Positions 24,150 through 58,756 are shown, counted from the first letter of the stretch. The stretch is DNA of 64,000 nucleotides from Eubacteriales bacterium (GCA_045589215.1 JAZNOQ010000085.1:4348-68347), one strand, 5' to 3'. The notes: generated from the sequence alone by a model not told the origin. Made by a program: numbers and translations.

Positions 24150-24200
24150 TTCGCCGGATGCAATAATAAACCTACATTATTATATAATACGGCGCAGATC

Positions 24201-24239: not shown

Positions 24240-24290
24240 GTGAGCCCCGCAAATCTTCGCTCGAAATTTTAGTTAAGGAGATAAGAGCAT

Positions 24291-25238
24291 ATGCCTACAA
24301 AAGTGAAACAGAAACAAGCTGTTTCCAGAAAGGACATGACGAAAGCGCAATGGATCTGGAAGGAAATGAAGCGCAATAAGGTCGGCTACGCAATGATCGC
24401 CCCCTTTATGCTCGTTTTCACGCTTTTCACCGTTGTGCCGGTCGCATTGTCCATTTATTACAGCTTTACAGACTTTAACCTGCTCGAGACAGCCCAGTGG
24501 CGAGGAATTGAAAACTACATTCGTCTGTTCCTTGACGATGACATCTTCCTCATATGTGTGAAGAACACGTTTATGTTCGCGGTGGTCGTAGGCCCCGCGT
24601 CCTACCTGATTTCCTTCCTCGTCGCATGGTTCATCAACGAGCTTTCTCCGATCGTTCGTTCGATCGTTACCCTGATTTTCTACGCTCCGTCCATTGCGGG
24701 TCAGGTTTACCTGATTTGGGGTACTCTTTTCTCGAGTGACTCCTACGGATGGGTCAATGCAACACTATTGAATATGGGTATGATCAGTGAACCGATCGCC
24801 TTCTTCGAGGATGAGGACTACGTTATGCCGCTTTGTATCGTGGTCTCTCTTTGGACGTCACTCGGTACTGCGTTCCTGTCGTTTATCGCAGGTCTGCAGG
24901 GTATTGATCACTCGCTGTACGAGGCGGGTGCCGTCGACGGTGTCAAGAACCGTTGGCAGGAGCTGTGGTACATTACGCTTCCTACGATGAGACCGCAGCT
25001 GATGTTCGGTGCGATCATGGCGATCACGAACTCCTTCGGATTTGGCGGTATCGTTACCGCGCTGTGCGGATTCCCGTCGGTTAACTACTGTGCGCATACG
25101 ATCATGCACCATCTTGAGGACTATGGCGGACAACGCTTTGAGATCGGTTATTCTTCCACCATTGCTGTCGTCTTGTTCGTTATCATGATCGGTGCGAACA
25201 TGCTCGTCAAGAAAGTGCTTTCTAAGGTGGGTAAGTAA
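24291..25238 (+). CDS. carbohydrate ABC transporter permease (MalF-like), pair 1
   Basis: Six TM helices and an EAA loop (YEAGAVDGVKNRWQELWYITLPTMRP). Good RBS. Confidence 0.9.
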   Translation: MPTKVKQKQAVSRKDMTKAQWIWKEMKRNKVGYAMIAPFMLVFTLFTVVPVALSIYYSFTDFNLLETAQWRGIENYIRLFLDDDIFLICVKNTFMFAVVVGPASYLISFLVAWFINELSPIVRSIVTLIFYAPSIAGQVYLIWGTLFSSDSYGWVNATLLNMGMISEPIAFFEDEDYVMPLCIVVSLWTSLGTAFLSFIAGLQGIDHSLYEAGAVDGVKNRWQELWYITLPTMRPQLMFGAIMAITNSFGFGGIVTALCGFPSVNYCAHTIMHHLEDYGGQRFEIGYSSTIAVVLFVIMIGANMLVKKVLSKVGK

Positions 25239-25239
25239 T

Positions 25240-26112
25240 ATGGCAAAGTTAAGAACAAGAAGACACAAGGTCGTCCTTGCCCGCTCACGAGGCGGTGATG
25301 CGGCGATATCGGTTATCCTTGTAATTTTGGGCGCGTTCATGTTCCTCCCGATGTATTACGTCGTGATACAGTCCTTTAAGCCCCTTGATGAGCTTTGGAT
25401 GTTCCCGCCCCGATTCTACGTAATCAATATGACCCCTAAGAACTACACGGATCTCTTTACATTGATGAGCACCTCGTGGGTTCCGTTCTCGCGTTACATT
25501 TTCAATACTGTTCTGACCTCGGTAGCAGGTACGTTCGGTAACCTGTTCTCGGCATCTCTTGCGGCATACGCAATTTCCAAGATCAAGTTCCCGGGACGAA
25601 AGTTTACGTTTAAGCTCGTCCGTACCTCGCTGATGTTCCACTCGACCGTTACCGGTATCACGTCCTTTATGATTATGTCGAGTCTTAAGCTCGTCGATAC
25701 ATATTGGGCGCTGATCCTTCCGGCACTCGGTTATAAGCTCGGCCTTTACCTGATGAAGCAGTTTATGGACACCAACGTTCCCAACACGGTCCTTGAAAGT
25801 GCCCGTCTCGACGGCTCGGGAGAATTGCGGACCTTCTGGGTCATTGCAATGCCTATGGTTAAGCCCGCATGGCTGACACTGATCATCTACTGCTTCGAGG
25901 ATCTGTGGAATAGAGGCTCTTCGACCTATATTCATTCGGAGCAGCTCAAATCGTTTAACTACGCAATCGGTCAGATCATGGCAGGCGGTATCAAACGTGC
26001 AGGTGCGCATGCCGCTTCCACGGTCATTATGATGCTCGTCCCGATCGCGGTATTCGTTATTACCCAGTCGAACGTCATCGAAACGATGGGCTCCTCGGGC
26101 ATGAAGGATTAA
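25240..26112 (+). CDS. carbohydrate ABC transporter permease (MalG-like), pair 1
   Basis: The ATG lies 1 nt after the upstream stop. EAA loop is ESARLDGSGELRTFWVIAMPMVKPA. Confidence 0.9.
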   Translation: MAKLRTRRHKVVLARSRGGDAAISVILVILGAFMFLPMYYVVIQSFKPLDELWMFPPRFYVINMTPKNYTDLFTLMSTSWVPFSRYIFNTVLTSVAGTFGNLFSASLAAYAISKIKFPGRKFTFKLVRTSLMFHSTVTGITSFMIMSSLKLVDTYWALILPALGYKLGLYLMKQFMDTNVPNTVLESARLDGSGELRTFWVIAMPMVKPAWLTLIIYCFEDLWNRGSSTYIHSEQLKSFNYAIGQIMAGGIKRAGAHAASTVIMMLVPIAVFVITQSNVIETMGSSGMKD

Positions 26113-26130
26113 AAGGAGGCAAGATTTTAT

Positions 26131-28266: not shown

Positions 28267-28289
28267 CAAACCGGAGGATATAGAAAATT

Positions 28290-31200
28290 ATGAAATTCAG
28301 AAGAATAATTTCAATGTTCCTGGCCGTATTGTTTGTGATCGGTACGTGCTCGGTGACGATCGGTGCAGCCGATACGTCCACGGGAACATCGAATTCGTCC
28401 TCCTCCGGTACTGTTGCGGAGAAGGTAACGTATAGCTATTACACCAACAGTAGTCCAAACCCTGAGGATGCTACCGTCCAGTATTTCGTTGATAAGGATC
28501 TCGAATGGACGGAGGCGAAGGTGTTTGACACTCCGAACGAAAAGCTCCAAACGATGGATCTTCGTCTTCAGCAGAACGGATATCAGCTGTATGTAGACGA
28601 ATACTCGGGTGAGGTGGCTTGCAGAAACCTTACCACCGAGGAGATCCTCTTCACGAACCCTTATAATATCGGTGCTTCTACGGCAAAGGGCAATCAGCTG
28701 TACGAGCTAATGTCGCAGATCCTCGTTGAGTATACCGATAAATCGACCGGCGTTACGACGACCTTCACCAGCTTTAAGGAAACCTCGGTCAGAGGTCAGC
28801 TCAAGGTGAAGAACATCAAGAACGGTCTCCGTGTTGAATATACCGTCGGTCGTGAGGAAGCGAAGATGCTCGTTCCGAGACTGATCGAAAAGACCCGCTT
28901 TGAAACCAAGATCCAGTCCGTGCTCGAAGAGGCACTTGTTGCCGAGGGTGAAGTCGGTCGTCTTAAGATCAATAAGGTCGTAAAGTGGTATAAGCTTTAC
29001 GATATCTCGCAGGCGACCAACGACATTGAATACGACTCGATGATCGCGATTGTTCCGATCGCAAGAGAGATGCCGGTATACAGTATCGACGAGTCTGTAA
29101 CCTCGGTTCAGCTTGCCGCGATCGAAATGCTCATCAAGACCTACGCATCCTCGTACACCTACGAGGATCTGGATTACGACCACGAGCTCACCGAATACGA
29201 GGGCGAGGAACAGAACCCGCCGCTCTTTAAGATGGCGCTTGAGTACATCATTTCGGACGAGGGACTTACCGTTACGCTTCCCGCAAACGGTCTCCGTTTC
29301 GACGAGTCTCGTTACACGCTTGAAAACATCTCCGTCCTGCCCTATATGGGTGCAGGTATGTCGCCCAACGAAGGTTATACCTTCTTCCCGGACGGCTCCG
29401 GTGCGCTCTTCGACTTTGAGGAGCTGCGTCAGCTGTCCTCGACCAGCATCAGCGGCCAGGTTTACGGCGTTGACTACGCATATCAGACCATTGCGGCGAC
29501 CCACCAGGAGACCATTCGCTATCCTGTATTCGGCGTCGTAGAGGTTCAGCAGCTCGAGAAGCTTGCTCCTGACCTTTCGATCCGGGAATATGAGCAGGAT
29601 CGCGGTTTCGTTGCGATCATTACTGAGGGTGACTCGATGGCAAAGCTTACCTCCGTACACGGCGGTAAGACGACGCACGAATATCACTCGGTCAAAATGA
29701 CCTACTACCCGCGTCCGAAGGACTCCTACAACCTGAAGGATGCGCTTTCGTCGACTTCTAACGGTAGCGGCGCTATGTGGGAAGTCGTTTCCTCGAGAAA
29801 GTACACCGGCAACTATACCGTGAAGTACGTAATGCTGACCGATACCGACGTCGCAGAGCAGATACAGCACGATATGGGTGAGGGAGAGACCTTTGATTAC
29901 TACGAATGCTCCTATATGGGTATGGCATCGGCGTATCGCGATTATCTCCTCGATACCGGCGTTCTGACTCCCCTTACGGAAGAGGATATCAGCGACGATA
30001 TCCCGCTTTACATCAATACCTTCGGTGCGATCGAGACGACTCAGAAGATCATGTCGATCCCCGTTGATGTAACCGTTGCTTTGACCTCCTTCAAGGACGT
30101 TGCGGAAATGTACGCACAGCTCGAGAAGGTTGGCATTACCAATGTAAACTTCAAGCTTACGGGTTACTCAAACGGCGGTATGTACGCGACTGTTCCGTAT
30201 TACCTCGATTGGGAAAAGGCCGTCGGCGGTGACAACGGCTTTGAGGCACTCCTCGACGACGCAAACAAGAAGGGCTATAAGGTCTTCCCGGACTTTGACT
30301 TCGTTTACGTTTCCGAAACCGGAATGATCGACGGTCTCGCACTTCGTAAACACGTCGTTAAGAGTATCGACAACCGTTACACCAGCCGTCGTGAATACTC
30401 TGCGACCAAGCAGGCGTTTGTCAGCTACTTCGAACTTTGTATCTCGCCCGCTTACTACGATCACTTCTACGAGAAGCTCACGACGAACTATCTGAAGCAC
30501 TTCGAAGATACCGATTATAACACCTCGATCTCGATCGGAACGCTCGGCTCCGAGCTGAACTCGGACTTCGATGAAGACGATCCGTTTAACCGTGAGGACT
30601 CGAAGCAGTCTACGATCAAGGCGTTTAAGTATTTCGACGAGAATTACGATTACGTAATGACCAATGGCGGTAACGCTTATACTTGGAAGTACGTAGATTA
30701 CATTCTCGATGTGCCGCTTGATTCGAGCCGCTTCATCAGAGCAAGCGCGTCGGTTCCCTTTATGGGTATCGTTCTCCACGGATATGTTCAGTTCTCCGGA
30801 ACGCCTATCAATATGGAGGGTAATCTCAATTACGCATTCCTGAAGGCGATCGAGAACGGTGCTTCCGTAAACTTCGTTCTTTCTTATCAGAATACGACTA
30901 CGCTGAAGAATGATATGCGTCTCAGCAAGTATTATTCGATTCGTTACGATATCTGGTTCGATGACGTTGTAACGATCTACAATAACCTGAATTCGCTCCT
31001 TTCTGACGTACAGCTTGAGACCATCGTTGATCACGAATTTATCGACGCACTTCGTGTTGCCGATCTTGACGAGGCAAAGAATGATCTCGACGCGGCGATC
31101 CTCGATTCGATCGAGGCAGAGCGTGAGGCTCTTGATAAGCAGAAGCTCGAAGAAATACAGACCATTCTGAATGCACGTCAGCTGATCCGTATCAACAGCG

Positions 31201-33017
31201 CGGCTGTTACCGCAGAGCTTGAAAAGCTGATGGGATACAAGGAATCGCTTATTTTGAAGCTCGGCTATGTCGAGAACGAGGATGGTGTTTCCTACACCAG
31301 CGGTGAGCTTGCACTTGCGATCAATAACTTTAACGCCGCAGTTCAGAATTATATCAAGGTTTACAACGGCGGTGACTGTGGTGCCAATGAGACCACGGGA
31401 ACCTCCGCAATTCTGGGTGACGCAGCCCGTGCGATGAACAATGCGGCGGCAGAGCTGCAGAAGTTCTACGATCAGGCGCAGAACGGTTCGGTCAACTATA
31501 TTGCCAACCAGGCGTATACCGCTGAGCTTGCAGCACGCGAGGCATATGAGAATGCAATCGCGGCATACGAAATCCTCGCTGCTACATCTGCAGTTTCGGA
31601 TTACATCAGAGAGCTCGCATGGGGACTTGTCGAGGATACCGCTGAGGCGGTAGCGACCATCGGCTCGATCGCGCCCAGCGTTTACGAAATGGCACAGGAC
31701 GCATACGATTATGCGATCAGCGGTGCCGCAACTCTGACCGATGCGAACGGTGATGCGATCTGCGAGATCAGCACCTATCAGTTCTACCTCTACGCACTTT
31801 GCGGTTACCTCGGTGTACAGCCGACCGTAAAGATCGATCCGAAGAACGTGCTTCGTTGCTATGAGATCGGCCTCATTAAGAGCGATCTTACGGCAAAGGC
31901 AGCGCTTGATCAGATCTGCAATATCTTGAAGATTGAGGACGCAACGGTTGCTCCTGATTATGCGGCTCTCTTTGCAGGCTATCTGAGCAAGTCCGGTCAG
32001 GTCGGATTTGAAACCAGATACAACACCTTCGCCGAAAGATGGCAGGAATATCAGGAGATCTACGAGCGATATAAGAACAAGAAGGCGACCTCGATTGATC
32101 TCGCGAATGCTCTGACTCCTTTGATGAATGCTGCAATTTACCTCAACACCGAATTCGGCTATTTCGTCGATCTGTTTGAGGCTTCGCCCAAGTCTGCGAA
32201 CAGCATCATTACCTTCTACGAGAATTCGCTTGATCTTCAGGCTCAGGCGAATGCCTTCTCGGCTGCATTTGCGGCTTGCTATGCTGCGGAAAATCCGTCC
32301 TCGGCACAGCTGAAGACGCTTGCCGATGCGGCGAAGATGCTCTCTGCATCCTTCGATACGATTTCCGACGATTATGCGATCGTTCCGAGCGATTCCGCAA
32401 CCGGTATCAACTCGTATGCTAAGAATGCCGAAAAGCATATGACGGTTCTTAAGAACGCTATGGAGACTGCGAAGTCGGTGCTTGCAACGCTTCAGAGGAC
32501 CCCGATCGCCGAGGGTGAAGAGGGCTATGCAGAGCGTCAGGCAGCGATCGCTTTGGCCCTTGAATACGTTCAGTATACCGAACGCAATTACAACGAAGTT
32601 GAAGCGGCTGCTAACGAGGTTGTTGATCTTGCGGAGAAGGCTTACGAAGAAGCTTCGAAGATCGATGAGGTTGTGAAGTACTGCAAGGCGGTCGAAGAGG
32701 TGACCTTTGCTGCAGAGGAGGATGAACGCCTTCTCGACGTGGCTCCCAAGTTCATCGAGCTTCTCCATCCGTACGATTATATCGCTCCGGAGGTAGAGGA
32801 GGAGATCCTTGAGGATGAGGAAGAGGTATATAACAAGTACAGCTCGGATAAGAACAGTGTCGTGCTTGTAACCTATTCGAACGGAACCAGATTCCTGTTG
32901 AATTATTGCAACTATGCAATCGTGGTGGAAATCGACGGAGTTTCTTACCGCGTGGAATCTCAGAGCTATCAAAAGATTCCCGTGGTGGAAAGTGAGGTAG
33001 AAGACAATGACCAGTGA
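28290..33017 (+). CDS. 1575-aa secreted DUF5696-like protein (putative glycan-processing TIM-barrel core) with ~600-aa Ala-rich all-helical C-terminal extension
   Basis: Signal peptide (FLAVLFVIGTCSVTIGA|AD). The core has FPDGSGALFDF, TGYSNGGMY..WEKAVGG, FPDFDFVYV, IGTLGSELNSDF and VPFMGIVLHGY. Residues ~900-1500 are Ala/Glu/Leu-rich helices, followed by a small terminal beta domain. The DUF5696 label is from memory. Confidence 0.55.
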   Translation: MKFRRIISMFLAVLFVIGTCSVTIGAADTSTGTSNSSSSGTVAEKVTYSYYTNSSPNPEDATVQYFVDKDLEWTEAKVFDTPNEKLQTMDLRLQQNGYQLYVDEYSGEVACRNLTTEEILFTNPYNIGASTAKGNQLYELMSQILVEYTDKSTGVTTTFTSFKETSVRGQLKVKNIKNGLRVEYTVGREEAKMLVPRLIEKTRFETKIQSVLEEALVAEGEVGRLKINKVVKWYKLYDISQATNDIEYDSMIAIVPIAREMPVYSIDESVTSVQLAAIEMLIKTYASSYTYEDLDYDHELTEYEGEEQNPPLFKMALEYIISDEGLTVTLPANGLRFDESRYTLENISVLPYMGAGMSPNEGYTFFPDGSGALFDFEELRQLSSTSISGQVYGVDYAYQTIAATHQETIRYPVFGVVEVQQLEKLAPDLSIREYEQDRGFVAIITEGDSMAKLTSVHGGKTTHEYHSVKMTYYPRPKDSYNLKDALSSTSNGSGAMWEVVSSRKYTGNYTVKYVMLTDTDVAEQIQHDMGEGETFDYYECSYMGMASAYRDYLLDTGVLTPLTEEDISDDIPLYINTFGAIETTQKIMSIPVDVTVALTSFKDVAEMYAQLEKVGITNVNFKLTGYSNGGMYATVPYYLDWEKAVGGDNGFEALLDDANKKGYKVFPDFDFVYVSETGMIDGLALRKHVVKSIDNRYTSRREYSATKQAFVSYFELCISPAYYDHFYEKLTTNYLKHFEDTDYNTSISIGTLGSELNSDFDEDDPFNREDSKQSTIKAFKYFDENYDYVMTNGGNAYTWKYVDYILDVPLDSSRFIRASASVPFMGIVLHGYVQFSGTPINMEGNLNYAFLKAIENGASVNFVLSYQNTTTLKNDMRLSKYYSIRYDIWFDDVVTIYNNLNSLLSDVQLETIVDHEFIDALRVADLDEAKNDLDAAILDSIEAEREALDKQKLEEIQTILNARQLIRINSAAVTAELEKLMGYKESLILKLGYVENEDGVSYTSGELALAINNFNAAVQNYIKVYNGGDCGANETTGTSAILGDAARAMNNAAAELQKFYDQAQNGSVNYIANQAYTAELAAREAYENAIAAYEILAATSAVSDYIRELAWGLVEDTAEAVATIGSIAPSVYEMAQDAYDYAISGAATLTDANGDAICEISTYQFYLYALCGYLGVQPTVKIDPKNVLRCYEIGLIKSDLTAKAALDQICNILKIEDATVAPDYAALFAGYLSKSGQVGFETRYNTFAERWQEYQEIYERYKNKKATSIDLANALTPLMNAAIYLNTEFGYFVDLFEASPKSANSIITFYENSLDLQAQANAFSAAFAACYAAENPSSAQLKTLADAAKMLSASFDTISDDYAIVPSDSATGINSYAKNAEKHMTVLKNAMETAKSVLATLQRTPIAEGEEGYAERQAAIALALEYVQYTERNYNEVEAAANEVVDLAEKAYEEASKIDEVVKYCKAVEEVTFAAEEDERLLDVAPKFIELLHPYDYIAPEVEEEILEDEEEVYNKYSSDKNSVVLVTYSNGTRFLLNYCNYAIVVEIDGVSYRVESQSYQKIPVVESEVEDNDQ

Positions 33018-33969
33018 TATGAATCTTCAAAATACCGTAAGCACTCCGAAGTCGGGGAAGAAGAAAAAGGCTTCTTCCCTGAACGCCCGGAAGGCTCGCG
33101 CAGGTTGGTGGTTCGTTGCCCCCTTTATCGTGGGCTTTGTCCTGATCTATCTGCCGATCCTTATTGAGTCGATCACCTATACCTTCTGCGAGGTTACAAC
33201 TCTCGGCCCCGGTGAATTCGAAACGAAATTCGTCGGCTTCGAGAACTATCAGAATGCATTCTTGGTGGATGCGAAATTCGTTCCCACCCTGCTCGGGGGT
33301 CTGCAGACCCTTGCGCTGAATATCCCGATGATCGTTATTTTCTCACTCTTTATGGCGGTCATTCTCAACCAGAAGATGGTCGGTCGTACCTTCTTCCGTG
33401 CAGTATTCTTTATCCCCGTCGTTCTTTCGGTCGGTATTCTTGAGAACCTTGACCCGAACTTCGACCCCGGTGCCGACGGTATTTCGGACGGCTCGGGAGA
33501 GAATGCGACTGAGGACCTAGTCTCTGCATTTGACCTTGCAATGCTCTTCCAGAGTATGAAGATCGGGGAACAGCTTGTTCAGATCGTTGTTGATGCGATC
33601 AACGGCGTTCAGGAGATCATCAGCCGTTCGGGCGTACAGTTCCTGATCTTCTTGACCGGTCTGCAGTCGATCTCGCCTGCGATCTACGAGTCGTGTCAGA
33701 TCGACGGCGCGACCTCTTGGGAGACCTTCTGGAAGATCACTCTGCCGATGATATCACCGATGATCCTTGTTAATGCGATCTATACCGTCATTGACAGCTT
33801 TACGGTGAATAACGTAGTCATGGACTATGTTCTGAATTACAGCGCGAACGTTACGGATGGTATTGCTTCGGCAATGGCTTGGTCGTACGTCTTGATCGTT
33901 GTCGGAATCATTGGAATTGTGGCACTTCTGCTCAAGGGCTTTGTCTTCTATCAGAAGCGTGATGCATAA
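33007..33969 (+). CDS. carbohydrate ABC transporter permease (MalF-like), pair 2
   Basis: The start overlaps the upstream stop by 11 nt. EAA loop is YESCQIDGATSWETFWKITLPMISP. Confidence 0.85.
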   Translation: MTSDMNLQNTVSTPKSGKKKKASSLNARKARAGWWFVAPFIVGFVLIYLPILIESITYTFCEVTTLGPGEFETKFVGFENYQNAFLVDAKFVPTLLGGLQTLALNIPMIVIFSLFMAVILNQKMVGRTFFRAVFFIPVVLSVGILENLDPNFDPGADGISDGSGENATEDLVSAFDLAMLFQSMKIGEQLVQIVVDAINGVQEIISRSGVQFLIFLTGLQSISPAIYESCQIDGATSWETFWKITLPMISPMILVNAIYTVIDSFTVNNVVMDYVLNYSANVTDGIASAMAWSYVLIVVGIIGIVALLLKGFVFYQKRDA

Positions 33970-33987
33970 GGAAAGGAGGAAGAAGTA

Positions 33988-35106
33988 ATGAATCAAGAAA
34001 CGATGCCAAAGGTTAAAAAAGAAACGAAAAATAAAATTCGCGTTGAATTTGACAGAACTCCGCTGAAAGAGCGTCTGATGTCAAAGTTTCTCAGCCTGTT
34101 CTTTCTGAAGAAGGTTGTGTGGTATATTTTTCGTCTCGTCCTTCTGATTGGTATTGCATACGTAATCCTTTCTCCCTTCCTCACGATGCTTATGAGATCC
34201 TTCATGAGCCTCGACGATCTTGCTGACCCCACGGTCATGCTGATCCCGAAGCATTGGAACGTCAGGATATATAAGGAAGTCTGGACACAGAACGGATATC
34301 TTGAGGCCTTTGTCAATACCTTCATCCTCTCCGGCAGTACGGCGTTGATCCAGACGTTCGTCTGCTGTCTGATCGGATACGGTCTTGCAAAGTTCAAGTT
34401 CAAGGGCAACAAGCTGATCTTTTTCGCAGTCATCTTTACGATGATCGTTCCGCATCAGGCTCTTTACAGCTCAATGCACATCAATTTCTCCTCCTTTGAC
34501 GTTTTTGGAATCTTCCAATTCCTGAACGGAGGCGGAATCGATCTGTTCGGTATCACGACGATCAACAACAGCTTCTTCGAGATGATCGATATTTTCCCGG
34601 ACACCGATGCTTTTAATAAGGTGTTCCAGAAAAACGGTCTGAACTTGATCGGCTCGGACATCCCGATTTATCTGCTTTCGTTTACCGGACTTGCGTTTAA
34701 GAACGGTCTGTATATCTTTATGCTTCGTCAGTTCTATCAGGGCGTTCCGGATGAGCTTGAGGAATCGGCATATATGGATGGATCGGGTACCTTCCGAACC
34801 TTCATACAGATCATTCTGCCGCTGTCGATCCCGATGATGATCACGGTGTTCATTTTCGCGTTCTGCTGGCAGTGGACGGATGACTTCTATGCGCAGGCAT
34901 TCAATCCGACGAATAAGAGCCTGCTGATGGATGATGTCATTCAACCTCCGGTTACAATGTCCATAGAGGTTGCGGAGAACCCGGACTATAAGACCGTTAT
35001 CAACAATACGGCGGGTCTGATGGTGCTTGCACCGCTTTTGATCCTTTACTGCGCGGGACAGAAGTTCCTCGTACAGGGTATCGAAAGCTCCGGTCTTGCA
35101 AACTGA
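33988..35106 (+). CDS. carbohydrate ABC transporter permease (MalG-like, extended), pair 2
   Basis: GGAAAGGAGG RBS and EAA loop EESAYMDGSGTFRTFIQIILPLSIPM. At 372 aa it is longer than usual. Confidence 0.85.
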   Translation: MNQETMPKVKKETKNKIRVEFDRTPLKERLMSKFLSLFFLKKVVWYIFRLVLLIGIAYVILSPFLTMLMRSFMSLDDLADPTVMLIPKHWNVRIYKEVWTQNGYLEAFVNTFILSGSTALIQTFVCCLIGYGLAKFKFKGNKLIFFAVIFTMIVPHQALYSSMHINFSSFDVFGIFQFLNGGGIDLFGITTINNSFFEMIDIFPDTDAFNKVFQKNGLNLIGSDIPIYLLSFTGLAFKNGLYIFMLRQFYQGVPDELEESAYMDGSGTFRTFIQIILPLSIPMMITVFIFAFCWQWTDDFYAQAFNPTNKSLLMDDVIQPPVTMSIEVAENPDYKTVINNTAGLMVLAPLLILYCAGQKFLVQGIESSGLAN

Positions 35107-50700: not shown

Positions 50701-51564
50701 CTATAATTCCTCTCGTGCGGCGCGGCGGAAATCCGACGGAGATGCTCCGACGGTGCGGCTGAAGAGGCGCGTGAAGTAATACGGCGAAGAGAACCCGACG
50801 GCGTAAGAGATCTCCGAGATCGAAAGCGGAGTGCTGCGTAAAAGCTCCTGCGCCTTCCCGATGCGAACGTTTTGGATAAATGCGGTCACACTCTGTCCTG
50901 CGTGGCGGCGGAATACACGCGCCGCATACTGCGGGGAGATGCTCATTTCCTCACTGAGCGACGAGAGGGAGAGGGGCTCGGGATAGTGCGCTTCGATGTA
51001 GTCGCGCATTGCGAGATAAGTGTTTTTGCTTTTGGGGGCAGGGGATTCCTCTGTCGGTACGGTGTAATTTTCGCTCAGCAGGAGCATGATGCGAAGAAGG
51101 GCGAGATCAAGCCGCGTTTTATCGAAGGTGTGCGAGCACGGAGCGTGACGAAGCGCGGATACGGCAAGATGCTCGACCTGCTCGCGCGACGCATTGATCG
51201 GCGTTGCGGAAGGCAGGAAAAATCCCGTTTCGCGCGGCTGAAGCTGTCCGATGAGCGGATGAGAGTCGGATTTCGTAAAATACAGCTTGTCTTCTTCCGT
51301 TCGGGACATCGTAAAGTGAAAATAGCAGTAATCGCAGTCCTCGACGGCACAGACCGAGTAGGCCGTATCCTCTTCGAGGAGAACAGCGGTTCCCGCGGGA
51401 AGCGAAACGTTTTGGGGGCCGAGTGAAAAACGCAGAATTCCGCTGAAAACATAGTAAAGCGCAGGCCTTTTCAGCCTTCTGCCTTGCTTCTGCCAGCCTG
51501 TTTCGTATTTCATACGCCCTGCGATGAGGGTTTGGGGGAGGGAATCGAGAGAAAAGATCGGCAT
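50701..51564 (-). CDS. AraC-family transcriptional regulator (cupin + HTH)
   Basis: C-terminal AraC HTH (ISEISYAVGFSSPYYFTRLFSRTVGASPSDFRR). The start is set at the ATG at 51564 after an AAAGGAGA RBS. Confidence 0.8.
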   Translation of the reverse strand: MPIFSLDSLPQTLIAGRMKYETGWQKQGRRLKRPALYYVFSGILRFSLGPQNVSLPAGTAVLLEEDTAYSVCAVEDCDYCYFHFTMSRTEEDKLYFTKSDSHPLIGQLQPRETGFFLPSATPINASREQVEHLAVSALRHAPCSHTFDKTRLDLALLRIMLLLSENYTVPTEESPAPKSKNTYLAMRDYIEAHYPEPLSLSSLSEEMSISPQYAARVFRRHAGQSVTAFIQNVRIGKAQELLRSTPLSISEISYAVGFSSPYYFTRLFSRTVGASPSDFRRAAREEL

Positions 51565-51712
51565 AGCAGGTCTCCTTTCGTTTTTTTTATTGTAGCACAG
51601 GGCTTGAGAAAAGTCAAGAGGTTTCGAAAAATGCAAAAAAATGCAGGGGTAGTCAATGGAAACATAGGGGCAATGTGTGTTATACTGAAAAAAACATTTG
51701 GAGGTTATAAAA

Positions 51713-53701
51713 ATGAATCAGAATAAGTTGACCTTTTCCGTAAATAAATGCGGCAACGCCGCTATCTGGGCTGCCGAGGGACTGCCGACGCGTGCGCGTG
51801 AGGGTAGTGACTTCTGGCGTATTATGATGGATGATGGGTACTACCGCGAGATGCCGGTCTATTCGCGTGACCAGATCGCCGCGTCGATCACCACCGAGAA
51901 GGGCAAGACTACCGTTGTGTACAATGGTCTTGTCGGTCGCGACGGTCGCAAATTCGACGTCGTTCTGAAGCTGACTGTGAAGGACGCAGGCGATATGCTT
52001 ACGTTTGATGCCGAGATCGAAAACCGCGATGAGGCTCGCGTAAACGAGCTTGAATATCCCTTCGTCGATCTTGAGCAGGTTGCAGATCCCGAATACAGGA
52101 AGGACGTTCTTTACCGTCCGAACGCGATGGGTGAGCGCATTGAAAATCCCCGTGCGGCACTTGCAAAGGCGCACACCGAGTACATGAGCGCAGACTACGA
52201 GGACATCAAGTCCACGCTCGCATATCCCCGCCCCGCAACGATGGCATGGATGGGGCTTGAGAGCGCGGGACACTTTCTCTACATTGGCAGACACGACGCG
52301 GAGTTCCGTGCCTGCTCGCTCCTTTGTGCGGTTGCACCGCGCGGCGCCTCCGACGACCGTCTGTCGCTTGCACTTTGCCACTATCCCTTCGCTAGGGAGG
52401 GAGAGACGGTTTCGATCGCTACCTGTGCGGTCTCCCTCACCGAGGGCGATTGGCGCGAGGGATCGCAGCGTTACCGCCGCTTTGCCGACGAGACCTTCTA
52501 TAAGCCCCATCCGAGACCGCAGTGGGTCAAGGATATGCACGGCTGGCAGAGGATCATCCTCCGTCATCAGTACGGTGAGGCATTCTGGAAGTACGAGGAT
52601 CTACCCCGTATCTATCTCGAGGGCAAGAAGAGCGGACTTGATACGCTTATGGTGTTCGGATGGTGGAAGGGACGCTTTGACAACGGATACCCGCTGTACG
52701 AAATCGACGAGGAGCTTGGCGGCGAGCAGGGCTTGAAGGATGCGATCGCAGAGGTTCAGAGACTCGGCGGCCGTGTGATCCTTTACAACAACGGTATTCT
52801 GATCGATACGAAGTCCGATTTCTTCCGTGACTATGGCGACGAGGTTGCAAAGATCGACATCGACGGAAATATGCATATGGACCACTACAAGTTCGAGAAC
52901 AACGGTACGGTTCTTCGTAACTACGGCTATAAGACCTTCGTTCGCGCCTGCCACGCGGCACCGCGTTGGAAGGACGTTATGGTGAATAACGCACGTCAGA
53001 AGCTGTCCTACGGCTGTGACGCGATTTTCTACGACCAGCTCGGTCAGAATGTTGCGCCCTGCTTCAATCCGAAGCACAGACACGGCAACAGAGCCGATTC
53101 GGAAGCGGTCTACCGTATGGAGAATGCCGAGGCGTGCCGTGCCGAGCTTTGGGGTGACAAGGCGATCGGAACCGAATGTGCAAACGATTTCGCCGTTACG
53201 TACGTTGACTTCCTCCACGGCTGTGAAAGAGGCGTTTACTACAAGAAGAACGATTCTGACAGAACGAAGACGGGCTTCCACGCGCTCTTCCGTCACACCT
53301 TCCCCGAGATCCCTGCGACGAACCGCTTCCAGCACGACTGCCGTGACGGCTTTGTCGACGAGCTGAACTACACCTTCGTCAATGGCTACCGCTTTGACGT
53401 TTCGATCTACCGCGGCAGAAAGTGTATCATCAGCGATATGCCCGAATATGCCGAATGCGTCGGGAAGCTGAACAAGCTGAAGGATCAGTACGCAGAATTC
53501 TTCTTCGGGGACGGACACTATGTTTACGATACCGTTCCGGAGCTTGAGAAGGGAAAGAAGCTCTTCTTCGGCGAGCATATTTCGGCGGACGGCAAGTATA
53601 TGATGGCATTCTCGAACGCATCCGACGAGGACGCAGAGGTCAGCGTTTACGGACAGACCGTTACGGTTCCCGCACACGAAGTGATCTGCGTGAGAAAGTA
53701 A
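51713..53701 (+). CDS. uncharacterised cytosolic glycoside-hydrolase-like protein (beta-sandwich + TIM-barrel, DUF-type), paralog A
   Basis: GGAGG RBS and no signal peptide. Barrel-like blocks are LMVFGWWKGRFDNGYP, RLGGRVILYNNG and DAIFYDQLG. Confidence 0.55.
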   Translation: MNQNKLTFSVNKCGNAAIWAAEGLPTRAREGSDFWRIMMDDGYYREMPVYSRDQIAASITTEKGKTTVVYNGLVGRDGRKFDVVLKLTVKDAGDMLTFDAEIENRDEARVNELEYPFVDLEQVADPEYRKDVLYRPNAMGERIENPRAALAKAHTEYMSADYEDIKSTLAYPRPATMAWMGLESAGHFLYIGRHDAEFRACSLLCAVAPRGASDDRLSLALCHYPFAREGETVSIATCAVSLTEGDWREGSQRYRRFADETFYKPHPRPQWVKDMHGWQRIILRHQYGEAFWKYEDLPRIYLEGKKSGLDTLMVFGWWKGRFDNGYPLYEIDEELGGEQGLKDAIAEVQRLGGRVILYNNGILIDTKSDFFRDYGDEVAKIDIDGNMHMDHYKFENNGTVLRNYGYKTFVRACHAAPRWKDVMVNNARQKLSYGCDAIFYDQLGQNVAPCFNPKHRHGNRADSEAVYRMENAEACRAELWGDKAIGTECANDFAVTYVDFLHGCERGVYYKKNDSDRTKTGFHALFRHTFPEIPATNRFQHDCRDGFVDELNYTFVNGYRFDVSIYRGRKCIISDMPEYAECVGKLNKLKDQYAEFFFGDGHYVYDTVPELEKGKKLFFGEHISADGKYMMAFSNASDEDAEVSVYGQTVTVPAHEVICVRK

Positions 53702-53770
53702 TCTTAGAACCAAAAAGGGGGCGAGTCATTTGATTGCCTCCTTCTCGAAAATCATAAAGGGAGATCTGTT

Positions 53771-55771
53771 ATGTATACACTCAGTTCAAAGCATATGACC
53801 TACTCACTGAACGAGCAGGGACTCGTTACATCGATCGTAAATGGATATAGCGGTCACGAGTACTGCATCATTCCGGGGGAGACCTTCAAACTGATCTACA
53901 AGGAGGATGACTGCGAGGAACGCCCCATATTCGGATCGCTTCAAACGCCGAGTATACGGATCGACGGAAACGTGATGACGGTAATGTACGACAAGCTCGT
54001 CAGCGACAACCGCACGCTGGATATATCGCTTACGATCCGTTACGAGCTTTCAGGAGACACGCTGACGACGGGATATACGATCAAAAACAACTCCGATGTG
54101 CTTGTTGCGGAGTTTCAATTTTCTCCCGTATCGGGGATTCAGTCGCTGAACGGAAATCCGAAGGAGGATTACGTGATGTGGCCTGCAAATTTGGGAGCAA
54201 AGATCGCAAATCCCGCTTTTACCGATCTTTCGACGATGTCGGGCTTCCGAAAGTACGAGCGTCACGATTTTCTGCACACCGATCTCGATAAGCTCTACCC
54301 CGGACACGCGACGATGCAGTTTTACGTTCTCTGTAATGACAGCGAGGGCATTTACGTTGGCAGCCACGACAAGACCCATCAGACAACGGGCATTCATGTC
54401 GAAAGAAGGGTGATGGATAACACGCTTCGGCTTGGCATCATCAAATACCCCTTCGCTGAACCGGGCGAGGAATACATCTCTGAACCGATCGTCTACGCGA
54501 TGCTCGACGGTGACTGGCACCTCGGATCAAAGATCTATCGGAAATGGATCGAGGAGGAATGCGGTTGGAGGGCTCCGACGCGCCCCGAATGGGCACAGGA
54601 GTTTCAGGGCTGGCTGCGCTGTATTTTCAGAACGCACCACGGCGAATACAACTGGACATATAAGGATATTCCGAGGCTCTTCGATCAGGTCAAAGAGGTT
54701 GGGCTGAACACCCTTTTTGTGCTGGGCTGGCCGAAGGGCGGTTTTGCGCGTATGTGGCCTGATTATATTGCCGATCCGCGACAGGGCGGAGAAGAGGAAC
54801 TGAAGAAGGCAATCGACTATGTCCACTCGAAGGGTGGCAAGCTGATTATGTTCCTCAGTTACTTCCTGATCGACAGAAACAGCGATTTCTACAAAAACGA
54901 GGACGGCAAGGAATGTCTCATCAAGGACATTTGGGGATACGAATATCCCTTTAGGGAGACCTACTGCGGTGAGGGTACGTACAGAAAGCTGCCGAATCAG
55001 CCGATGCCGATGCTCGGCGCTTGCCCGGGCTCAGATGCTTGGCAGGAGAAGATGAAAAAGAGTGCAGATTATTGTCTTAATCTCGGATGCGACGGTGTGC
55101 TTTATGACCTCGGCGGTCTTGCTCCGTTTTTCTGCTTTGCCGAGGGACACGATCACGAGAAGCCGAATTTTTCACACGCTTCAAAGGCAAAGCGGTTTGC
55201 CGAGCTTCGCGAGACCGTCAAGAGGCACGGCGATGAAAGGATCATTCTGCAGGAGCACTGTGTGGATATTTTTGCGCAGAGTATGGACATCGTTCAGCCG
55301 AGCGGCTTCGGCAATATCAGAAAGAACGTCAAGGCATATGAGTTTATGCGCTACACCTTTCCCGAGATCGTGATGACGAATCGCGAGATGGGACAAGATG
55401 ATTCAAACTATCTTGACAACGTGAACTGCACCTTTGTATACGGTGTTGCGTTCGATATGACGATCTACCGCTGTTGCGGAGATCTTCACGATGTTCCGAA
55501 ATACGCCGAATATATGAGCCGTATCATTGCACTCAGAAAGCAGTATGCGAAGTATTTCTTTGACGGAAGATTCGTTGACACGGATGGTATAGCGGCTTCT
55601 TCTGAGAGTTTCCTCTATAAGGGTTACCTTGCGAAGGACGGAAGCCTTGGTGTTGCCGTGTGGAACTGGAGCAAGGGGGATGACATCGTGACGTACACAA
55701 ACAAGGAGACGGGCAAAAGCGTTGCAGTCTCTCTTAAAAAGGACGAGGTTACCTTCGTCGAGCTTTCATAG
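53771..55771 (+). CDS. uncharacterised cytosolic glycoside-hydrolase-like protein, paralog B
   Basis: Same length (666 aa) and collinear motifs with paralog A (LFVLGWPKGGFARMWP, SKGGKLIMFLSY, DGVLYDLGG). Confidence 0.55.
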   Translation: MYTLSSKHMTYSLNEQGLVTSIVNGYSGHEYCIIPGETFKLIYKEDDCEERPIFGSLQTPSIRIDGNVMTVMYDKLVSDNRTLDISLTIRYELSGDTLTTGYTIKNNSDVLVAEFQFSPVSGIQSLNGNPKEDYVMWPANLGAKIANPAFTDLSTMSGFRKYERHDFLHTDLDKLYPGHATMQFYVLCNDSEGIYVGSHDKTHQTTGIHVERRVMDNTLRLGIIKYPFAEPGEEYISEPIVYAMLDGDWHLGSKIYRKWIEEECGWRAPTRPEWAQEFQGWLRCIFRTHHGEYNWTYKDIPRLFDQVKEVGLNTLFVLGWPKGGFARMWPDYIADPRQGGEEELKKAIDYVHSKGGKLIMFLSYFLIDRNSDFYKNEDGKECLIKDIWGYEYPFRETYCGEGTYRKLPNQPMPMLGACPGSDAWQEKMKKSADYCLNLGCDGVLYDLGGLAPFFCFAEGHDHEKPNFSHASKAKRFAELRETVKRHGDERIILQEHCVDIFAQSMDIVQPSGFGNIRKNVKAYEFMRYTFPEIVMTNREMGQDDSNYLDNVNCTFVYGVAFDMTIYRCCGDLHDVPKYAEYMSRIIALRKQYAKYFFDGRFVDTDGIAASSESFLYKGYLAKDGSLGVAVWNWSKGDDIVTYTNKETGKSVAVSLKKDEVTFVELS

Positions 55772-55775
55772 AAAA

Positions 55776-55805
55776 CGGGACCGAGTCAATTTTGACTCGG
55801 TCCCG
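55776..55805. terminator. hairpin between convergent GH-like and oxidoreductase operons
   Basis: CGGGACCGAGTCAA-tt-TTGACTCGGTCCCG. The flanking A and T runs are only moderate. Confidence 0.6.
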
Positions 55806-55829
55806 AAGTTATTTTATATGAATGGTTCT

Positions 55830-56888
55830 TCAGATCGTGACCTCGTGGCCGCTTTCTGCCGAACGGTAGATCGCCGAGAGGATACGCATCAGCTCAACAC
55901 CGTCCTCTGCGGGGTTGCGGCACTCGACCTTGCCCTCGATCGCATCGACGAAATGGTTGATCTCGCGTGTGAACGCCTCGCTGACGCTGAGCCCGGTCTT
56001 GCCCTCGAACTCGAAGTCCTTCAATTCGTCGTTCTCCTCGCCGTACATACGGACATCCTTGCCGATATAGAGACCTGCGCCCGTGCCGAAAAGCTCGACG
56101 CTGTTGCGGTCGCCCTCAAGGTTCAGGCTGAAGCTCATTTCTGCGGTCATGACCGCGCCGTTATCGAAGCGGATGGTCGCAGCGGCGAGATCCTCGCAGT
56201 CGCATTCTCCGAGCGATTTGCTCGAGGAGGTGTAATTCTTTTTGTTCTTCAGGTTCGAGCGGTCACCGAGCTTCAAGAAGGTAGAGCCGTAAACCGAAAC
56301 CGCCTTCGGCTTGCCCATCAGATAACGAACGAGGTCGATCGAGTGAACGCCGAGGTCAATGAGAGGACCGCCTCCCGAGAATTCCTTTCTGCCGAACCAG
56401 CCGCCGGGGTGACCGTTACGGCGAAGGTACTGCGCCTTTGCGTAGTAGATCTCTCCGAGCTTGCCGTCCGCGATCAGATCCGATGCGAGGTCGCAGTCGC
56501 GGCCGAAGCGGCGAACGAAGCCGATCATCAGAAGCTTGCCGTTTCTCTCTGCGGCTGCCTGCATTGCCTCTGCCTCTTCGAGGGTGGAAGCCATCGGCTT
56601 CTCGCACAGGACGTGCTTGCCTGCGTCAAGCGCCATAATGGTGCAGGGTGCGTGTGCGCTGTTCCAAGTGCAGACGCTTACGGCGTCGATCTCGGGAAGT
56701 GCGCGGAGCATTTCCGCTTCGCTGGTGTAAAGACGGGTGACACCGTACTTTTCGCCCATCAGCTTGAGGCGCTCCTCGTTGATGTCGCAGAACGCGTACA
56801 GCTCAACGTCGGGATTTGCAATATAATTTTTGATGTGGTAGGATGAGATGCTTCCAACGCCTACAACGGCTACCTTGATCTTTTCCAT
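55830..56888 (-). CDS. Gfo/Idh/MocA-family NAD(P)-dependent oxidoreductase
   Basis: Rossmann N-terminus KVAVVGVGSISS and an EKPMA motif (VLCEKPMAST). The start is at the ATG at 56888 after an AAAGGAG RBS. Confidence 0.85.
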   Translation of the reverse strand: MEKIKVAVVGVGSISSYHIKNYIANPDVELYAFCDINEERLKLMGEKYGVTRLYTSEAEMLRALPEIDAVSVCTWNSAHAPCTIMALDAGKHVLCEKPMASTLEEAEAMQAAAERNGKLLMIGFVRRFGRDCDLASDLIADGKLGEIYYAKAQYLRRNGHPGGWFGRKEFSGGGPLIDLGVHSIDLVRYLMGKPKAVSVYGSTFLKLGDRSNLKNKKNYTSSSKSLGECDCEDLAAATIRFDNGAVMTAEMSFSLNLEGDRNSVELFGTGAGLYIGKDVRMYGEENDELKDFEFEGKTGLSVSEAFTREINHFVDAIEGKVECRNPAEDGVELMRILSAIYRSAESGHEVTI

Positions 56889-56910
56889 TTTGATATACTC
56901 CTTTTCTTGA

Positions 56911-57768
56911 TCAGTTGTTTTCAATCGTCGAGGTGAGGAAATTCTTGGCGATCACAATATCCCCGACGCGATCCTCACCGCATTCGCGTTCGATCGTGAG
57001 GAAGCCCTTGTAGCCGATCGCTTCAAGCGCACGGAGATATTCGGGGAAGGGGACGGAGCCCGTTCCGAGCGCGACCTCCTTGAAGTAGGGACCCTGAAGC
57101 AGCGGATCCTCAGGCTTCGGAACGACGTGATAAACGACCTCGGGATTCGACTCCTTCAGCTTGATGCCGTCCTTTGCGTGGGTGTGTACGATGTATTTCT
57201 TTAAAGTGTGGACTGCCTTTACGGGATCGTCGCCCGTGACCATCACGAGGTTTGCAGGGTCAAGGTTGACGCTGACGCCCGTTGAGTGGAGTCCGTCGAG
57301 GAATCCCTTCAGAACGGTAGCGGTCTCGGGACCTGTTTCGATCGCGAAATGCGCCCCTACGCTGTCTGCAAATTCCGCGAGCTCGCCGCAGGCATCCTGC
57401 ATAATGGCGTAGCGGGGGTGAGAGGGATCGGTCGGAACGACGCCGATGTGCGTCGTGATGATGTTCGTTTCAAGCTCGAGCGCCATCTCGACGATACGCT
57501 TCGATTTCTCGATGAGAGCGGGATTGAGCTCGGGGTTTCCGAAGCCCTTTCCGAGGTCGCCGCAAAGCGCAGAGAAAACGAGACCGTTCGACTTCATAAC
57601 GTCGAGCAGCTCACGACGCGCCTCGGTGCTCATGTTTTCGGGCGCGTGCTCGCCCTTGGTCGCGTACATCTGGATACCCTTGGCACCGATCTCCGCCGCC
57701 TTTTCGATCGCCTCGACCGTAGGGAGACGGAAGGATTCGAGCATAACGCCGATGGGAAATTGATACAT
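56911..57768 (-). CDS. sugar phosphate isomerase/epimerase-family TIM-barrel protein
   Basis: Xylose-isomerase-like TIM blocks (IITTHIG, FAIETG, VNLDPANL, HTHAKD, LTIERE). Confidence 0.8.
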   Translation of the reverse strand: MYQFPIGVMLESFRLPTVEAIEKAAEIGAKGIQMYATKGEHAPENMSTEARRELLDVMKSNGLVFSALCGDLGKGFGNPELNPALIEKSKRIVEMALELETNIITTHIGVVPTDPSHPRYAIMQDACGELAEFADSVGAHFAIETGPETATVLKGFLDGLHSTGVSVNLDPANLVMVTGDDPVKAVHTLKKYIVHTHAKDGIKLKESNPEVVYHVVPKPEDPLLQGPYFKEVALGTGSVPFPEYLRALEAIGYKGFLTIERECGEDRVGDIVIAKNFLTSTIENN

Positions 57769-57934
57769 AGCCGTATTTCCTTTCTGATTTGGAATTCATA
57801 TTTTTCGGAACCCTGCATAGAGATCCGAAAAAAGGGTTGATTTTTCCTTATCTCTATTGTATAATAAGAAATAAGGATTGTCAATCCTAAATTTTTGCGT
57901 TTTTTTAGCACGATGTTGCTTTTTTGGAGGAAAT

Positions 57935-58756
57935 ATGAGTATTTATGAAAATCACCGCATGAAGGATCCGCGGCTCCCGTTTATTTTCCACTTCACCCGT
58001 TTCTCCCCCGGACATCCCGCGGGGCGCGGAAATTGGCATGAAAATCTTGAGCTTTTGTATTTCGTTTCGGGCTCTGCAACCGTGACGAGCAATGAGGATC
58101 GACTTTCACTTTCTGCGGGGGAGATTGCCATTCTGAACACCAACCGTCTGCATATGATCTCGACCTCCTCCGAGGAGGGGGCGGAATATTATTGCCTGAT
58201 CATCGACCGCAGCTTTTGTCTTGCAAATCACTTCGACACGGGACGGATCGAATTTGACGAGATCGTGCGTGACAAAGAGATCTCGGGACTGTTCGACCGC
58301 TTGATCTCGGAGTACGCAGAGGACAAGGATGCCCCCTACCGCGTACAGATGATCCGCTCGACCGTCCTTCGAATGATGGCACTTTTGTGTAGACACCACA
58401 GCCGCGCGGAGCTGTCCGAGGAAACCGACTCCCACTGTCTCGTCTGCATCAAGCAGGCTCTCGGACGGATCCACGCGCACAGCGAGGAGGCGTTCACACT
58501 CGACGATATCGCGGAATTCGTCGGGATGAGCAAGTATCATTTCGCAAGAGAGTTTCGCCGCGTTACGGGGCATACCTTCGTCGCGTACGTCAATCTCATC
58601 CGATGTGAAAAGGCAAAGGCACTGCTTTCCGAGGGGCAGATGCGGATCGGAGACGTTGCGCGTGCATGCGGATTTGAGAGTCAATCGTACTTTACAAAGA
58701 CCTTTCGGAAGAATACGGGCGAGCTTCCGAATGAGTACCGAAAACGGAAAAAGTGA
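57935..58756 (+). CDS. AraC-family transcriptional regulator (cupin + HTH)
   Basis: N-terminal cupin (WHENLELLYFVSG) and a C-terminal HTH (IGDVARACGFESQSYFTKTFRKNTGELPNEYR). GGAGG RBS. Confidence 0.8.
   Translation: MSIYENHRMKDPRLPFIFHFTRFSPGHPAGRGNWHENLELLYFVSGSATVTSNEDRLSLSAGEIAILNTNRLHMISTSSEEGAEYYCLIIDRSFCLANHFDTGRIEFDEIVRDKEISGLFDRLISEYAEDKDAPYRVQMIRSTVLRMMALLCRHHSRAELSEETDSHCLVCIKQALGRIHAHSEEAFTLDDIAEFVGMSKYHFAREFRRVTGHTFVAYVNLIRCEKAKALLSEGQMRIGDVARACGFESQSYFTKTFRKNTGELPNEYRKRKK

Follow-up and report, generated by a model that had tools for sequence, protein, structure and literature searches.

A DUF6259 glycosidase-like gene pair and a TIM-barrel-oxidoreductase module, each beside its own AraC-type regulator gene, converge in a Eubacteriales genome

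Introduction

In a 64,000-nucleotide stretch of DNA from Eubacteriales bacterium (GCA_045589215.1, JAZNOQ010000085.1:4348-68347; the whole stretch is hereafter called the window), six genes and a hairpin follow one another in the order AraC1(-), GH-A(+), GH-B(+), hairpin, OXR(-), TIM(-), and AraC2(+). GH-A and GH-B encode glycoside hydrolase (GH)-like proteins, OXR a Gfo/Idh/MocA-type oxidoreductase, TIM a xylose-isomerase-like TIM-barrel protein, and AraC1 and AraC2 two AraC-type regulators. A preliminary description of this locus had proposed that one imported glycoside is broken down jointly by the four enzymes, through hydrolysis combined with an oxidative-eliminative route. Does the locus indeed encode one pathway, or do two separate units merely adjoin here? 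The analysis described below favored two independent AraC-type regulons that would lie tail to tail by chance and share a terminator, namely a DUF6259 glycosidase pair and a shortened TIM-OXR module, a reading to which we give about even credence.

Genomic Linkage of the Two Units

A genome scan for GH-A homologues yielded 80 loci (1.29 Mb in total), whose neighboring genes were clustered and the clusters annotated, and the contexts of TIM were collected from three look-ups and 80 metagenome loci (83 loci, 847 kb). OXR and TIM adjoined a GH-A homologue in one of the 80 GH-A loci, namely L001 from the same genus. Since L001 is collinear with window 48.0-60.5 kb at approximately 81% nucleotide identity, the adjacency there is inherited synteny and is uninformative. 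No DUF6259 gene was found in the 83 TIM loci, and neither OXR nor TIM in the three contexts of the GH-B family (L168, L170, and L171).

The regulators, meanwhile, were shown to follow their own units. In at least 17 of the 76 GH-A loci, the DUF6259 gene had a homologous AraC gene beside it in divergent orientation, and an AraC2 orthologue (36-54% identity) was divergent from the TIM homologue in 28 of the 65 loci having room upstream, which lie on unrelated contigs. AraC1 thus travels with DUF6259 and AraC2 with TIM, and the conserved units are AraC1 divergent from DUF6259 and AraC2 divergent from TIM-oxidoreductase, with or without a second TIM gene. Apart from T-runs and ribosome-binding sites, no operator motif shared by the two control regions was found.

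Furthermore, window 53717-55831, comprising GH-B and the hairpin, is replaced in L001 (12004-13764) by an unrelated 1.76-kb segment with both flanks collinear. A degraded GH-B was sought in L001 and none was found, the segment being unrelated. Directly downstream of OXR, the segment carries two minus-strand open reading frames (ORFs) of 200 aa (no Pfam match) and 237 aa (a weak match to Peptidase_S9 and alpha-beta-hydrolase). The junction of the two units looks like a hotspot of gene gain and loss.

These observations spoke against the proposed single pathway of four enzymes: the GH-like genes and OXR/TIM are unlinked outside this genus, the closest relative lacks GH-B but has all the rest, and each regulator travels with its own unit while the promoter regions share no motif. 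The idea of a combined pathway found no backing in comparative genomics and, on these comparisons, probably does not hold.

Family, Fold, and Conserved Residues of GH-A and GH-B

The label "GH-like" given earlier to the two unknown proteins was supported and made more specific, in that both belong to DUF6259 and the model fold is nearest to GH129, GH36, and GH101. Against the Pfam model DUF6259 (PF19773; cut-off 28.7 bits), GH-A and GH-B scored 75.5 and 88.9 bits, respectively, and their homologues carry PF19773 as a precomputed annotation. The two are paralogues sharing 30% identity (BLASTP, E 6e-76), and NCBIfam holds no model for either. Among 1.84 billion representative sequences, a profile search retrieved 3831 DUF6259 relatives at E <= 0.001 and 661 at E <= 1e-30. 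No match among all PDB chains was found for GH-A or GH-B by phmmer or for a 42-sequence family profile by hmmsearch. Since CAZy families are defined by sequence, and structures of GH129, GH36, and GH101 are present in the PDB and none of them matched, the two proteins do not fall into these families by sequence. A literature search for DUF6259, DUF5696, PF19773, and PF18952 likewise returned no paper.

An AlphaFold (AF2) model of GH-A built from 42 homologues (predicted local distance difference test, pLDDT, 92.3; predicted template modeling score, pTM, 0.92) consisted of an N-terminal beta-sandwich, a (beta/alpha)8 barrel, and a C-terminal beta-sandwich, which is the three-domain organization of GH129, GH36, and GH101. 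The best whole-chain Foldseek matches were members of these three families (E 4e-26 to 1e-18, 10-16% identity, probability 1.0), with template modeling (TM) scores of 0.62-0.68 to 5opq, 5wzn, 8x1b, and 4fnr. The GH129 matches were the 3,6-anhydro-D-galactosidase ZgGH129 and the alpha-N-acetylgalactosaminidase NagBb, and those of GH36 were alpha-galactosidases and a galactosaminidase. GH-A therefore resembles these enzymes in predicted three-domain architecture, size, and whole-chain TM score (approximately 0.67), but differs from them in that no sequence similarity was detected even with the family profile and the aligned identity is as low as 10-16%.

In an alignment of 24 sequences covering both DUF6259 subfamilies, D365, D436, D441, E488, D492, E532, and D562 (GH-A numbering) were invariant, as were R280, R538, R567, C413, C450, H455, and H457. 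In the model, D441 is located just after the strand 437-440 and E488 just after the strand 484-487, these being consecutive strands of the barrel, and the two residues are thus inferred to be the candidate nucleophile and acid/base. The two Cys and two His residues invariant in both subfamilies (C413, C450, H455, and H457) are encoded at approximately 52949-53083 of the window and may form a metal site; the GH129 enzyme NagBb is reported to have metal cofactors.

Genomic Context of DUF6259 Genes

The loci with GH-A homologues came from rumen and gut Clostridia, Ruminiclostridium cellobioparum, Paenibacillus, Cohnella, and Treponemataceae. Recurrent neighbors were genes for ATP-binding cassette (ABC) sugar transporters (18-24 loci), an SDR dehydrogenase (18 loci), an enolase-superfamily protein (15 loci), aldose 1-epimerase and an MBL-fold hydrolase (10 loci each), RpiR regulators, and several unannotated proteins. 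The enolase-superfamily protein passed the NCBIfam galactonate dehydratase model (367.6 against a cut-off of 311). The trio of SDR, hydrolase, and galactonate dehydratase resembles a De Ley-Doudoroff-type oxidative route, and, taken with the alpha-galactosidase-like fold, this trio suggests that the sugar product of the GH-A subfamily is galacto-configured. The gene order DUF6259-SDR-MBL-fold hydrolase-enolase-superfamily protein recurs as an operon (L043, L045, L048, L052, L058-L062, and others), and in Paenibacillus these genes are accompanied by an ABC transporter and a 1400-1700-aa protein.

The three contexts of GH-B homologues were a position beside a GH20 hexosaminidase (L168), a convergent arrangement with a GH-A homologue (L170), and a cluster with ABC and ROK-kinase genes (L171). 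In L170 (2662-6697), a GH-B homologue of 70% identity converges with a GH-A homologue of 51% identity, and an AraC gene lies nearby; the DUF6259 paralogues hence co-localize, in a different arrangement, in at least one other genome.

The window itself contains an ABC-type locus at 20505-35106(+), which encodes a 1214-aa solute-binding protein, four permease-like proteins, a 711-aa NHL/TPR/Yip1 protein, and a 1575-aa DUF5696 protein (Pfam E 2.6e-133). Because GH-A and GH-B show weak, sub-threshold Pfam matches to DUF5696, the window holds three members of one GH-like superfamily.

Relationship of OXR to DgpA-Type Oxidoreductases

OXR was assigned to the Gfo/Idh/MocA family by its Pfam matches to the N domain (PF01408, 111.5 bits) and the C domain (PF02894, 99.9 bits) and by the motifs CEKPM (K97) and D178-x3-H182, which align to those of DgpA. 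Its best PDB match was DgpA1 of strain W974-1 (E 4e-54, 187 bits), followed by DgpA of strain PUE (E 1.5e-50, 175 bits), both end-to-end and with identities of 39% and 35%, respectively. The next match, an aldose-aldose oxidoreductase, scored 122 bits, approximately 65 bits below the best, and inositol dehydrogenases of known structure scored 57-86 bits. None of the NCBIfam models compared was passed by OXR, namely IolG TIGR04380 (158.2, cut-off 355), levoglucosan dehydrogenase LgdA (129.6, cut-off 650), BT_2158 (54.9, cut-off 750), and BT_2159 (51.6, cut-off 650). The preliminary description had named grouping with inositol or other free-sugar dehydrogenases as the result that would undo its view of OXR; by these scores, the nearest enzymes were instead the DgpA-type glycoside 3-oxidoreductases. 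OXR is accordingly placed, on sequence similarity, nearest to this type and short of orthology.

The glucose pocket of DgpA is composed of K100, R159, W166, D182, H186, F189, F223, and E264 (PMC9939296). In OXR, K100, R159, D182, and H186 are kept (K97, R156, D178, and H182), F223 corresponds to Tyr, and F189 was not mappable in the alignment. DgpA and DgpA1, which are glycoside 3''-oxidoreductases of the gut strains PUE and W974-1 (PDB 7xr9 and 9m3d), are thus similar to OXR in the EKP lysine, the sugar-binding Arg, and the D-x3-H pair, as well as in size, cytoplasmic nature, and origin from gut Firmicutes. In contrast, OXR has no adjacent dgpB or dgpC, the TIM protein accompanying it belongs to another subfamily, and enzymes at its level of identity to DgpA can differ in substrate and regiochemistry. 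In one report, a DgpA-type enzyme alone is described to turn O-glycosides into the aglycone via spontaneous elimination of the 3-oxo product (PMC11239390).

The TIM-Barrel Protein

TIM matched Pfam AP_endonuc_2 (PF01261) with 100.8 bits (cut-off 31.1), and its AF2 model was a TIM barrel (pLDDT 92.9). E144, D170, H197, and E260, an E-D-H-E metal-binding set, were invariant in 32 homologues. The best sequence match was 3tva (E 2e-18, or 1.7e-24 by family profile; fold TM score 0.80), a structural-genomics xylose-isomerase-domain protein of Planctomyces limnophilus with no assigned function. MJ1311 and the isomerase Art22 (8z1i; E 4.9e-11 by family profile) were weaker matches, and a literature search on Art22 found no description of its reaction. 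Even 3tva and Art22, the best matches by sequence and fold, share no more than 25% identity with TIM. By fold, TIM was about equally near to 3tva, Art22, UlaE, ketose 3-epimerases, AsbF, DgpB-C (rank 18), YcjR (rank 20), and AtHYD (rank 37).

No relation of TIM to DgpC/CGE, OGE, IolE, or IolI was detectable: the family profile gave E values of 0.03 for IolI, 0.12 for IolE, and 0.95 or worse for the DgpC/CGD chains, and TIM scored 23.8 against NCBIfam IolE TIGR04379 (cut-off 290). The OGE/CGE lyases bear His-x-His on strand 5 (PMC10628242), whereas strand 5 of TIM, as assigned from the model, bears H140-x3-E144, so that TIM was not filed as an OGE/CGE-type lyase. An assignment of TIM to the characterized 3-keto-glycoside lyases was not supported; its sequence matches an uncharacterized structure (3tva), and its fold neighbors are mixed. 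The chemistry shared by proteins of this fold, metal-assisted proton abstraction beside a carbonyl, would fit elimination, epimerization, or isomerization of the keto-sugar that OXR would produce.

The TIM-OXR Module in Other Genomes

More than 8000 TIM homologues were found, the top 120 of which showed 68-99% identity. A Gfo/Idh/MocA gene directly adjoined TIM in 39 of the 64 loci having room, and a second, distantly related TIM barrel (TIM2), whose best PDB match is Art22, is usual in the module. TIM2 was looked for in the window and none was found; L001 likewise has none. The other neighbors were inconsistent (nitroreductase, MarR, NagA/NagB, HD, NUDIX, and others) and uninformative on the substrate. 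In one widespread contig type (L084, L085, L086, and L088, at 10815-12625), NagB-like (Glucosamine_iso) and NagA-like (Amidohydro_1) genes lie downstream of TIM-OXR-TIM2 in the same orientation, which hints at a link to amino sugars in some lineages; most loci are without these genes.

Gfo/Idh/MocA oxidoreductases and TIM-barrel proteins have been described to form cassettes for oxidation, elimination, and hydration in fosmid P2B11 and in the AL/BT clusters (bioRxiv 10.1101/2024.03.25.586180), and AtOGE/AtHYD of Agrobacterium tumefaciens provides a further precedent for such a combination (PMC10628242). In P2B11, which is of Gram-positive origin and cleaves glucuronides, two "sugar-phosphate isomerases" enclose two oxidoreductases and there is no transporter close by (bioRxiv 10.1101/2024.03.25.586180). 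The window shares with the Collinsella-like P2B11 (Iso1-Oxido1-Oxido2-Iso2), AL1-4/BT2156-2160, LgdA/B1/B2/C, and GlycDH-OGE-HYD-Gfo of A. tumefaciens a Gfo/Idh/MocA gene beside one or more metal-dependent TIM barrels, and with P2B11 also a cluster without a transporter. This similarity to non-Koshland cassettes is at the superfamily level only, since OXR is 24% identical to Oxido1/Oxido2, TIM compared with Iso1/Iso2 is near noise (sequences taken from the supplement of the paper), and the window copy consists of one TIM and one oxidoreductase.

Interpretation of the Locus

In the proposed reading of two independent regulons, unit 1 (AraC1 divergent from GH-A-GH-B) would comprise two predicted cytoplasmic DUF6259 paralogues acting as retaining exo-glycosidases of an undescribed GH family with GH129/GH36/GH101-like architecture. 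Imported oligosaccharides would be their likely substrates, probably of galacto configuration in the case of the GH-A subfamily. Unit 2 (AraC2 divergent from TIM-OXR) would represent a shortened copy of the very widespread Clostridia module composed of a divergent AraC gene and TIM-Gfo/Idh/MocA-second TIM. OXR may oxidize a hydroxyl group of a sugar or glycoside, most likely the C3-OH, to a keto group, and the metal-dependent TIM may then abstract the proton beside the carbonyl, the outcome of which could be beta-elimination, epimerization, or isomerization. 3-Keto-sugar chemistry is plausible for unit 2 only. The data show how the genes are laid out, to which families and folds their products belong, which residues are conserved, and which synteny patterns occur; substrates, reaction outcome, and the independence of the regulons are what we infer.

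Several observations weigh against this reading or its parts. Two of the seven mappable pocket residues of DgpA, W166 and E264, are not kept in OXR, and this, together with the identity of 35-39%, makes the C3 regiochemistry of OXR tentative. The fold neighbors of TIM fit several reaction types, and the catalytic assignment of D441 and E488 is drawn from conservation and strand position. Because the window is without the TIM2 seen in most relatives, the module may be incomplete here. With regard to the independence of the units, their adjacency is kept in one same-genus relative (L001), which is uninformative and leaves coupling possible, and the ABC locus with the DUF5696 protein at 20-35 kb could feed oligosaccharides to the DUF6259 enzymes. 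In addition, L057 has a Gfo-family gene, unrelated to OXR (36% identity), directly upstream of a DUF6259 gene, and in L087 (10899-15545) TIM-OXR-TIM2 is followed by a second AraC gene divergent from genes for 643-aa and 506-aa proteins without a Pfam match. L057 and L087 together make a loose association of such modules with glycan genes possible. L087 also echoes the tail-to-tail layout of the window with a different unannotated enzyme.

These latter points bear on the possibility that the two AraC regulators control a single four-enzyme pathway for one imported glycoside, with DUF6259 serving the hydrolytic and OXR plus TIM the oxidative-eliminative part. The physical adjacency kept in L001, the pairing in L057, and the ABC system with its GH-like DUF5696 protein 20 kb upstream would be in line with such coupling, as would the DgpA-like nature of OXR and the apparently cytoplasmic location of all four proteins. 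Set against them are the lack of co-occurrence in 79 of the 80 GH-A loci, in the 83 TIM loci, and in the three GH-B contexts, the dispensability of GH-B in the sister species, the separate regulators and control regions, and the strong terminator between the units, and we therefore consider this possibility improbable. A broader proposal is that DUF6259 is a new GH family distantly related in architecture to GH129/36/101 and, at the same time, that AraC divergent from TIM and DgpA-like OXR, with or without TIM2, constitutes a compact cytoplasmic non-Koshland glycoside-cleaving system, in which oxidation is followed by elimination, catalyzed by TIM lyases that have an E-D-H-E site and form a class unrelated to OGE/CGE, DUF6259 and this system perhaps cooperating on one imported glycan in this genus. 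Taken as a whole, this proposal appears rather unlikely.

Alternatively, OXR and TIM may act on a free sugar or cyclitol without cleaving any glycosidic bond, for instance as an inositol-like dehydrogenase with an inosose isomerase, as a ketose reductase with a 3-epimerase, or in 1,5-anhydrofructose-type chemistry. The presence of UlaE and ketose 3-epimerases among the fold neighbors of TIM, which carries their E-D-H-E metal set, the lack of a transporter or glycosidase partner for the module in most genomes, and the partial matches of OXR to IolG (158 bits), aldose-aldose oxidoreductase, and GFOR are consistent with this alternative, and the identity of approximately 70% across thousands of TIM homologues suggests a common small substrate. 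On the other hand, the IolG score of OXR is far below the cut-off of 355, and DgpA1 scored 187 bits compared with 57-122 bits for inositol and free-sugar dehydrogenases of known structure; the IolE score of TIM is 24 bits against a cut-off of 290, and its family profile reached IolI only at E 0.03. Action on a free sugar is consequently regarded as possible, though doubtful. A DgpABC-type deglycosylation of plant C-glycosides such as puerarin would fit with DgpA1 and DgpA being, among proteins of known structure, the closest to OXR and with the appearance of DgpC among the fold neighbors of TIM, at rank 18. Inspection of the ORF lists for the locus and for the 83 related loci showed no DgpB-like small-subunit gene, no profile search for one having been made, and this makes C-glycoside deglycosylation unlikely. 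Considering also the E values of 0.95 or worse of the TIM family profile against DgpC/CGD alpha chains, the Glu (E144) occupying the strand-5 metal-ligand position, by the model, in place of the CGE/OGE His-x-His (PMC10628242), and the abundance of the module, far greater than expected of a specialized C-glycoside trait, we regard this last alternative as scarcely credible.

Under the preferred reading of two independent regulons, the novelty of the locus is the two uncharacterized enzyme families, its architecture being ordinary. DUF6259, for which neither a paper nor a solved sequence relative was found, offers a concrete candidate for a glycosidase family, and a specificity, not yet described, given its occurrence in plant-glycan-degrading and gut Firmicutes beside sugar transporters and galactonate-type catabolic genes. 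The TIM-OXR module ranks among the more conserved unannotated sugar modules of gut Clostridia, and if its chemistry proved to be DgpA-like 3-keto chemistry, oxidative cleavage of glycosides and drug glycosides would be far commoner in gut Firmicutes than the few characterized dgp/dfg clusters suggest.

Organization of the Locus and Other Features

The features of the locus are summarized in Table 1, in which start codons were set by reading the ribosome-binding sites upstream of each ORF. The six-gene layout given in the preliminary description was reproduced, with ORFs at the positions and on the strands described and with the expected Pfam families; the 22-nt gap between TIM and OXR also holds, with the OXR start at MEKIKV. 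What had been called a mirror image is two standard divergent AraC-plus-operon units tail to tail, an arrangement that carries no extra information.

Table 1. Coordinates and properties of the features of the locus (window positions)
Feature	Position	Strand	Description
AraC1	50701-51564	-	AraC/XylS-family regulator, 287 aa from ATG with AGGAG ribosome-binding site, divergent from GH-A; Pfam HTH_18 4e-22, HTH_AraC 1e-17
AraC1/GH-A control region	51565-51712		Divergent control region; promoter-like hexamers on both strands
GH-A	51713-53701	+	DUF6259 protein, 662 aa
GH-B	53771-55771	+	Second DUF6259 protein, 666 aa
Hairpin	55776-55805		Bidirectional intrinsic-terminator-like hairpin between the two convergent units
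OXR	55830-56888	-	Gfo/Idh/MocA NAD-dependent oxidoreductase, 352 aa, DgpA-like, MEKIKV start
TIM	56911-57768	-	Xylose-isomerase-like TIM-barrel protein, 285 aa, first gene of the TIM-OXR operon
TIM/AraC2 control region	57769-57934		Divergent control region; back-to-back promoter-like sites
AraC2	57935-58756	+	AraC-family regulator with cupin/AraC ligand-binding domain, 273 aa; Pfam HTH_18, HTH_AraC, AraC_binding, Cupin_2

GH-A and GH-B are separated by 69 nt, and GH-B is probably co-transcribed with GH-A. The hairpin noticed earlier between the convergent units proved to have a perfect 13-bp stem with nine G-C pairs and a 4-nt loop; its folding energy was -26.5 kcal/mol (z = -7.7), which none of 200 shuffled sequences equaled. 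A T-run lies on the minus strand, on the side of OXR and TIM, that of the plus strand being weaker, and with T-runs on both sides the hairpin can terminate both convergent units.

In the AraC1/GH-A control region, a direct repeat, AAAAATGCA, occurs twice with 10-nt spacing, and the block GAAAAGTCAAGAGGTTTCGAAAAATGCAA is kept in L001. The TIM/AraC2 control region contains TTGACA-17-TACAAT on the minus strand and TTGATT-17-TATAAT on the plus strand, and a block of approximately 60 nt spanning both promoter-like sites is likewise kept in L001. Both regulators matched the two HTH models of Pfam, and AraC_binding and Cupin_2 were matched by AraC2 only.

The absence of signal peptides from the four enzymes, as described earlier, agreed with our inspection of the translations by eye, in which no N-terminal signal-like segment was seen (no predictor was run), and the earlier statement that no transporter is encoded locally held for 50.7-58.8 kb. 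The flanks are of housekeeping character, encoding homoserine dehydrogenase, DUF4364, a sigma factor, a zinc-finger protein, RNase Y, and an amidohydrolase. Long ORFs of 295-374 aa are also present antisense to GH-A and OXR, at window 51680-52567(-), 52601-53713(-), and 55722-56846(+); the genes that they overlap have strong homologue support, and these ORFs look like by-products of codon composition rather than genes.

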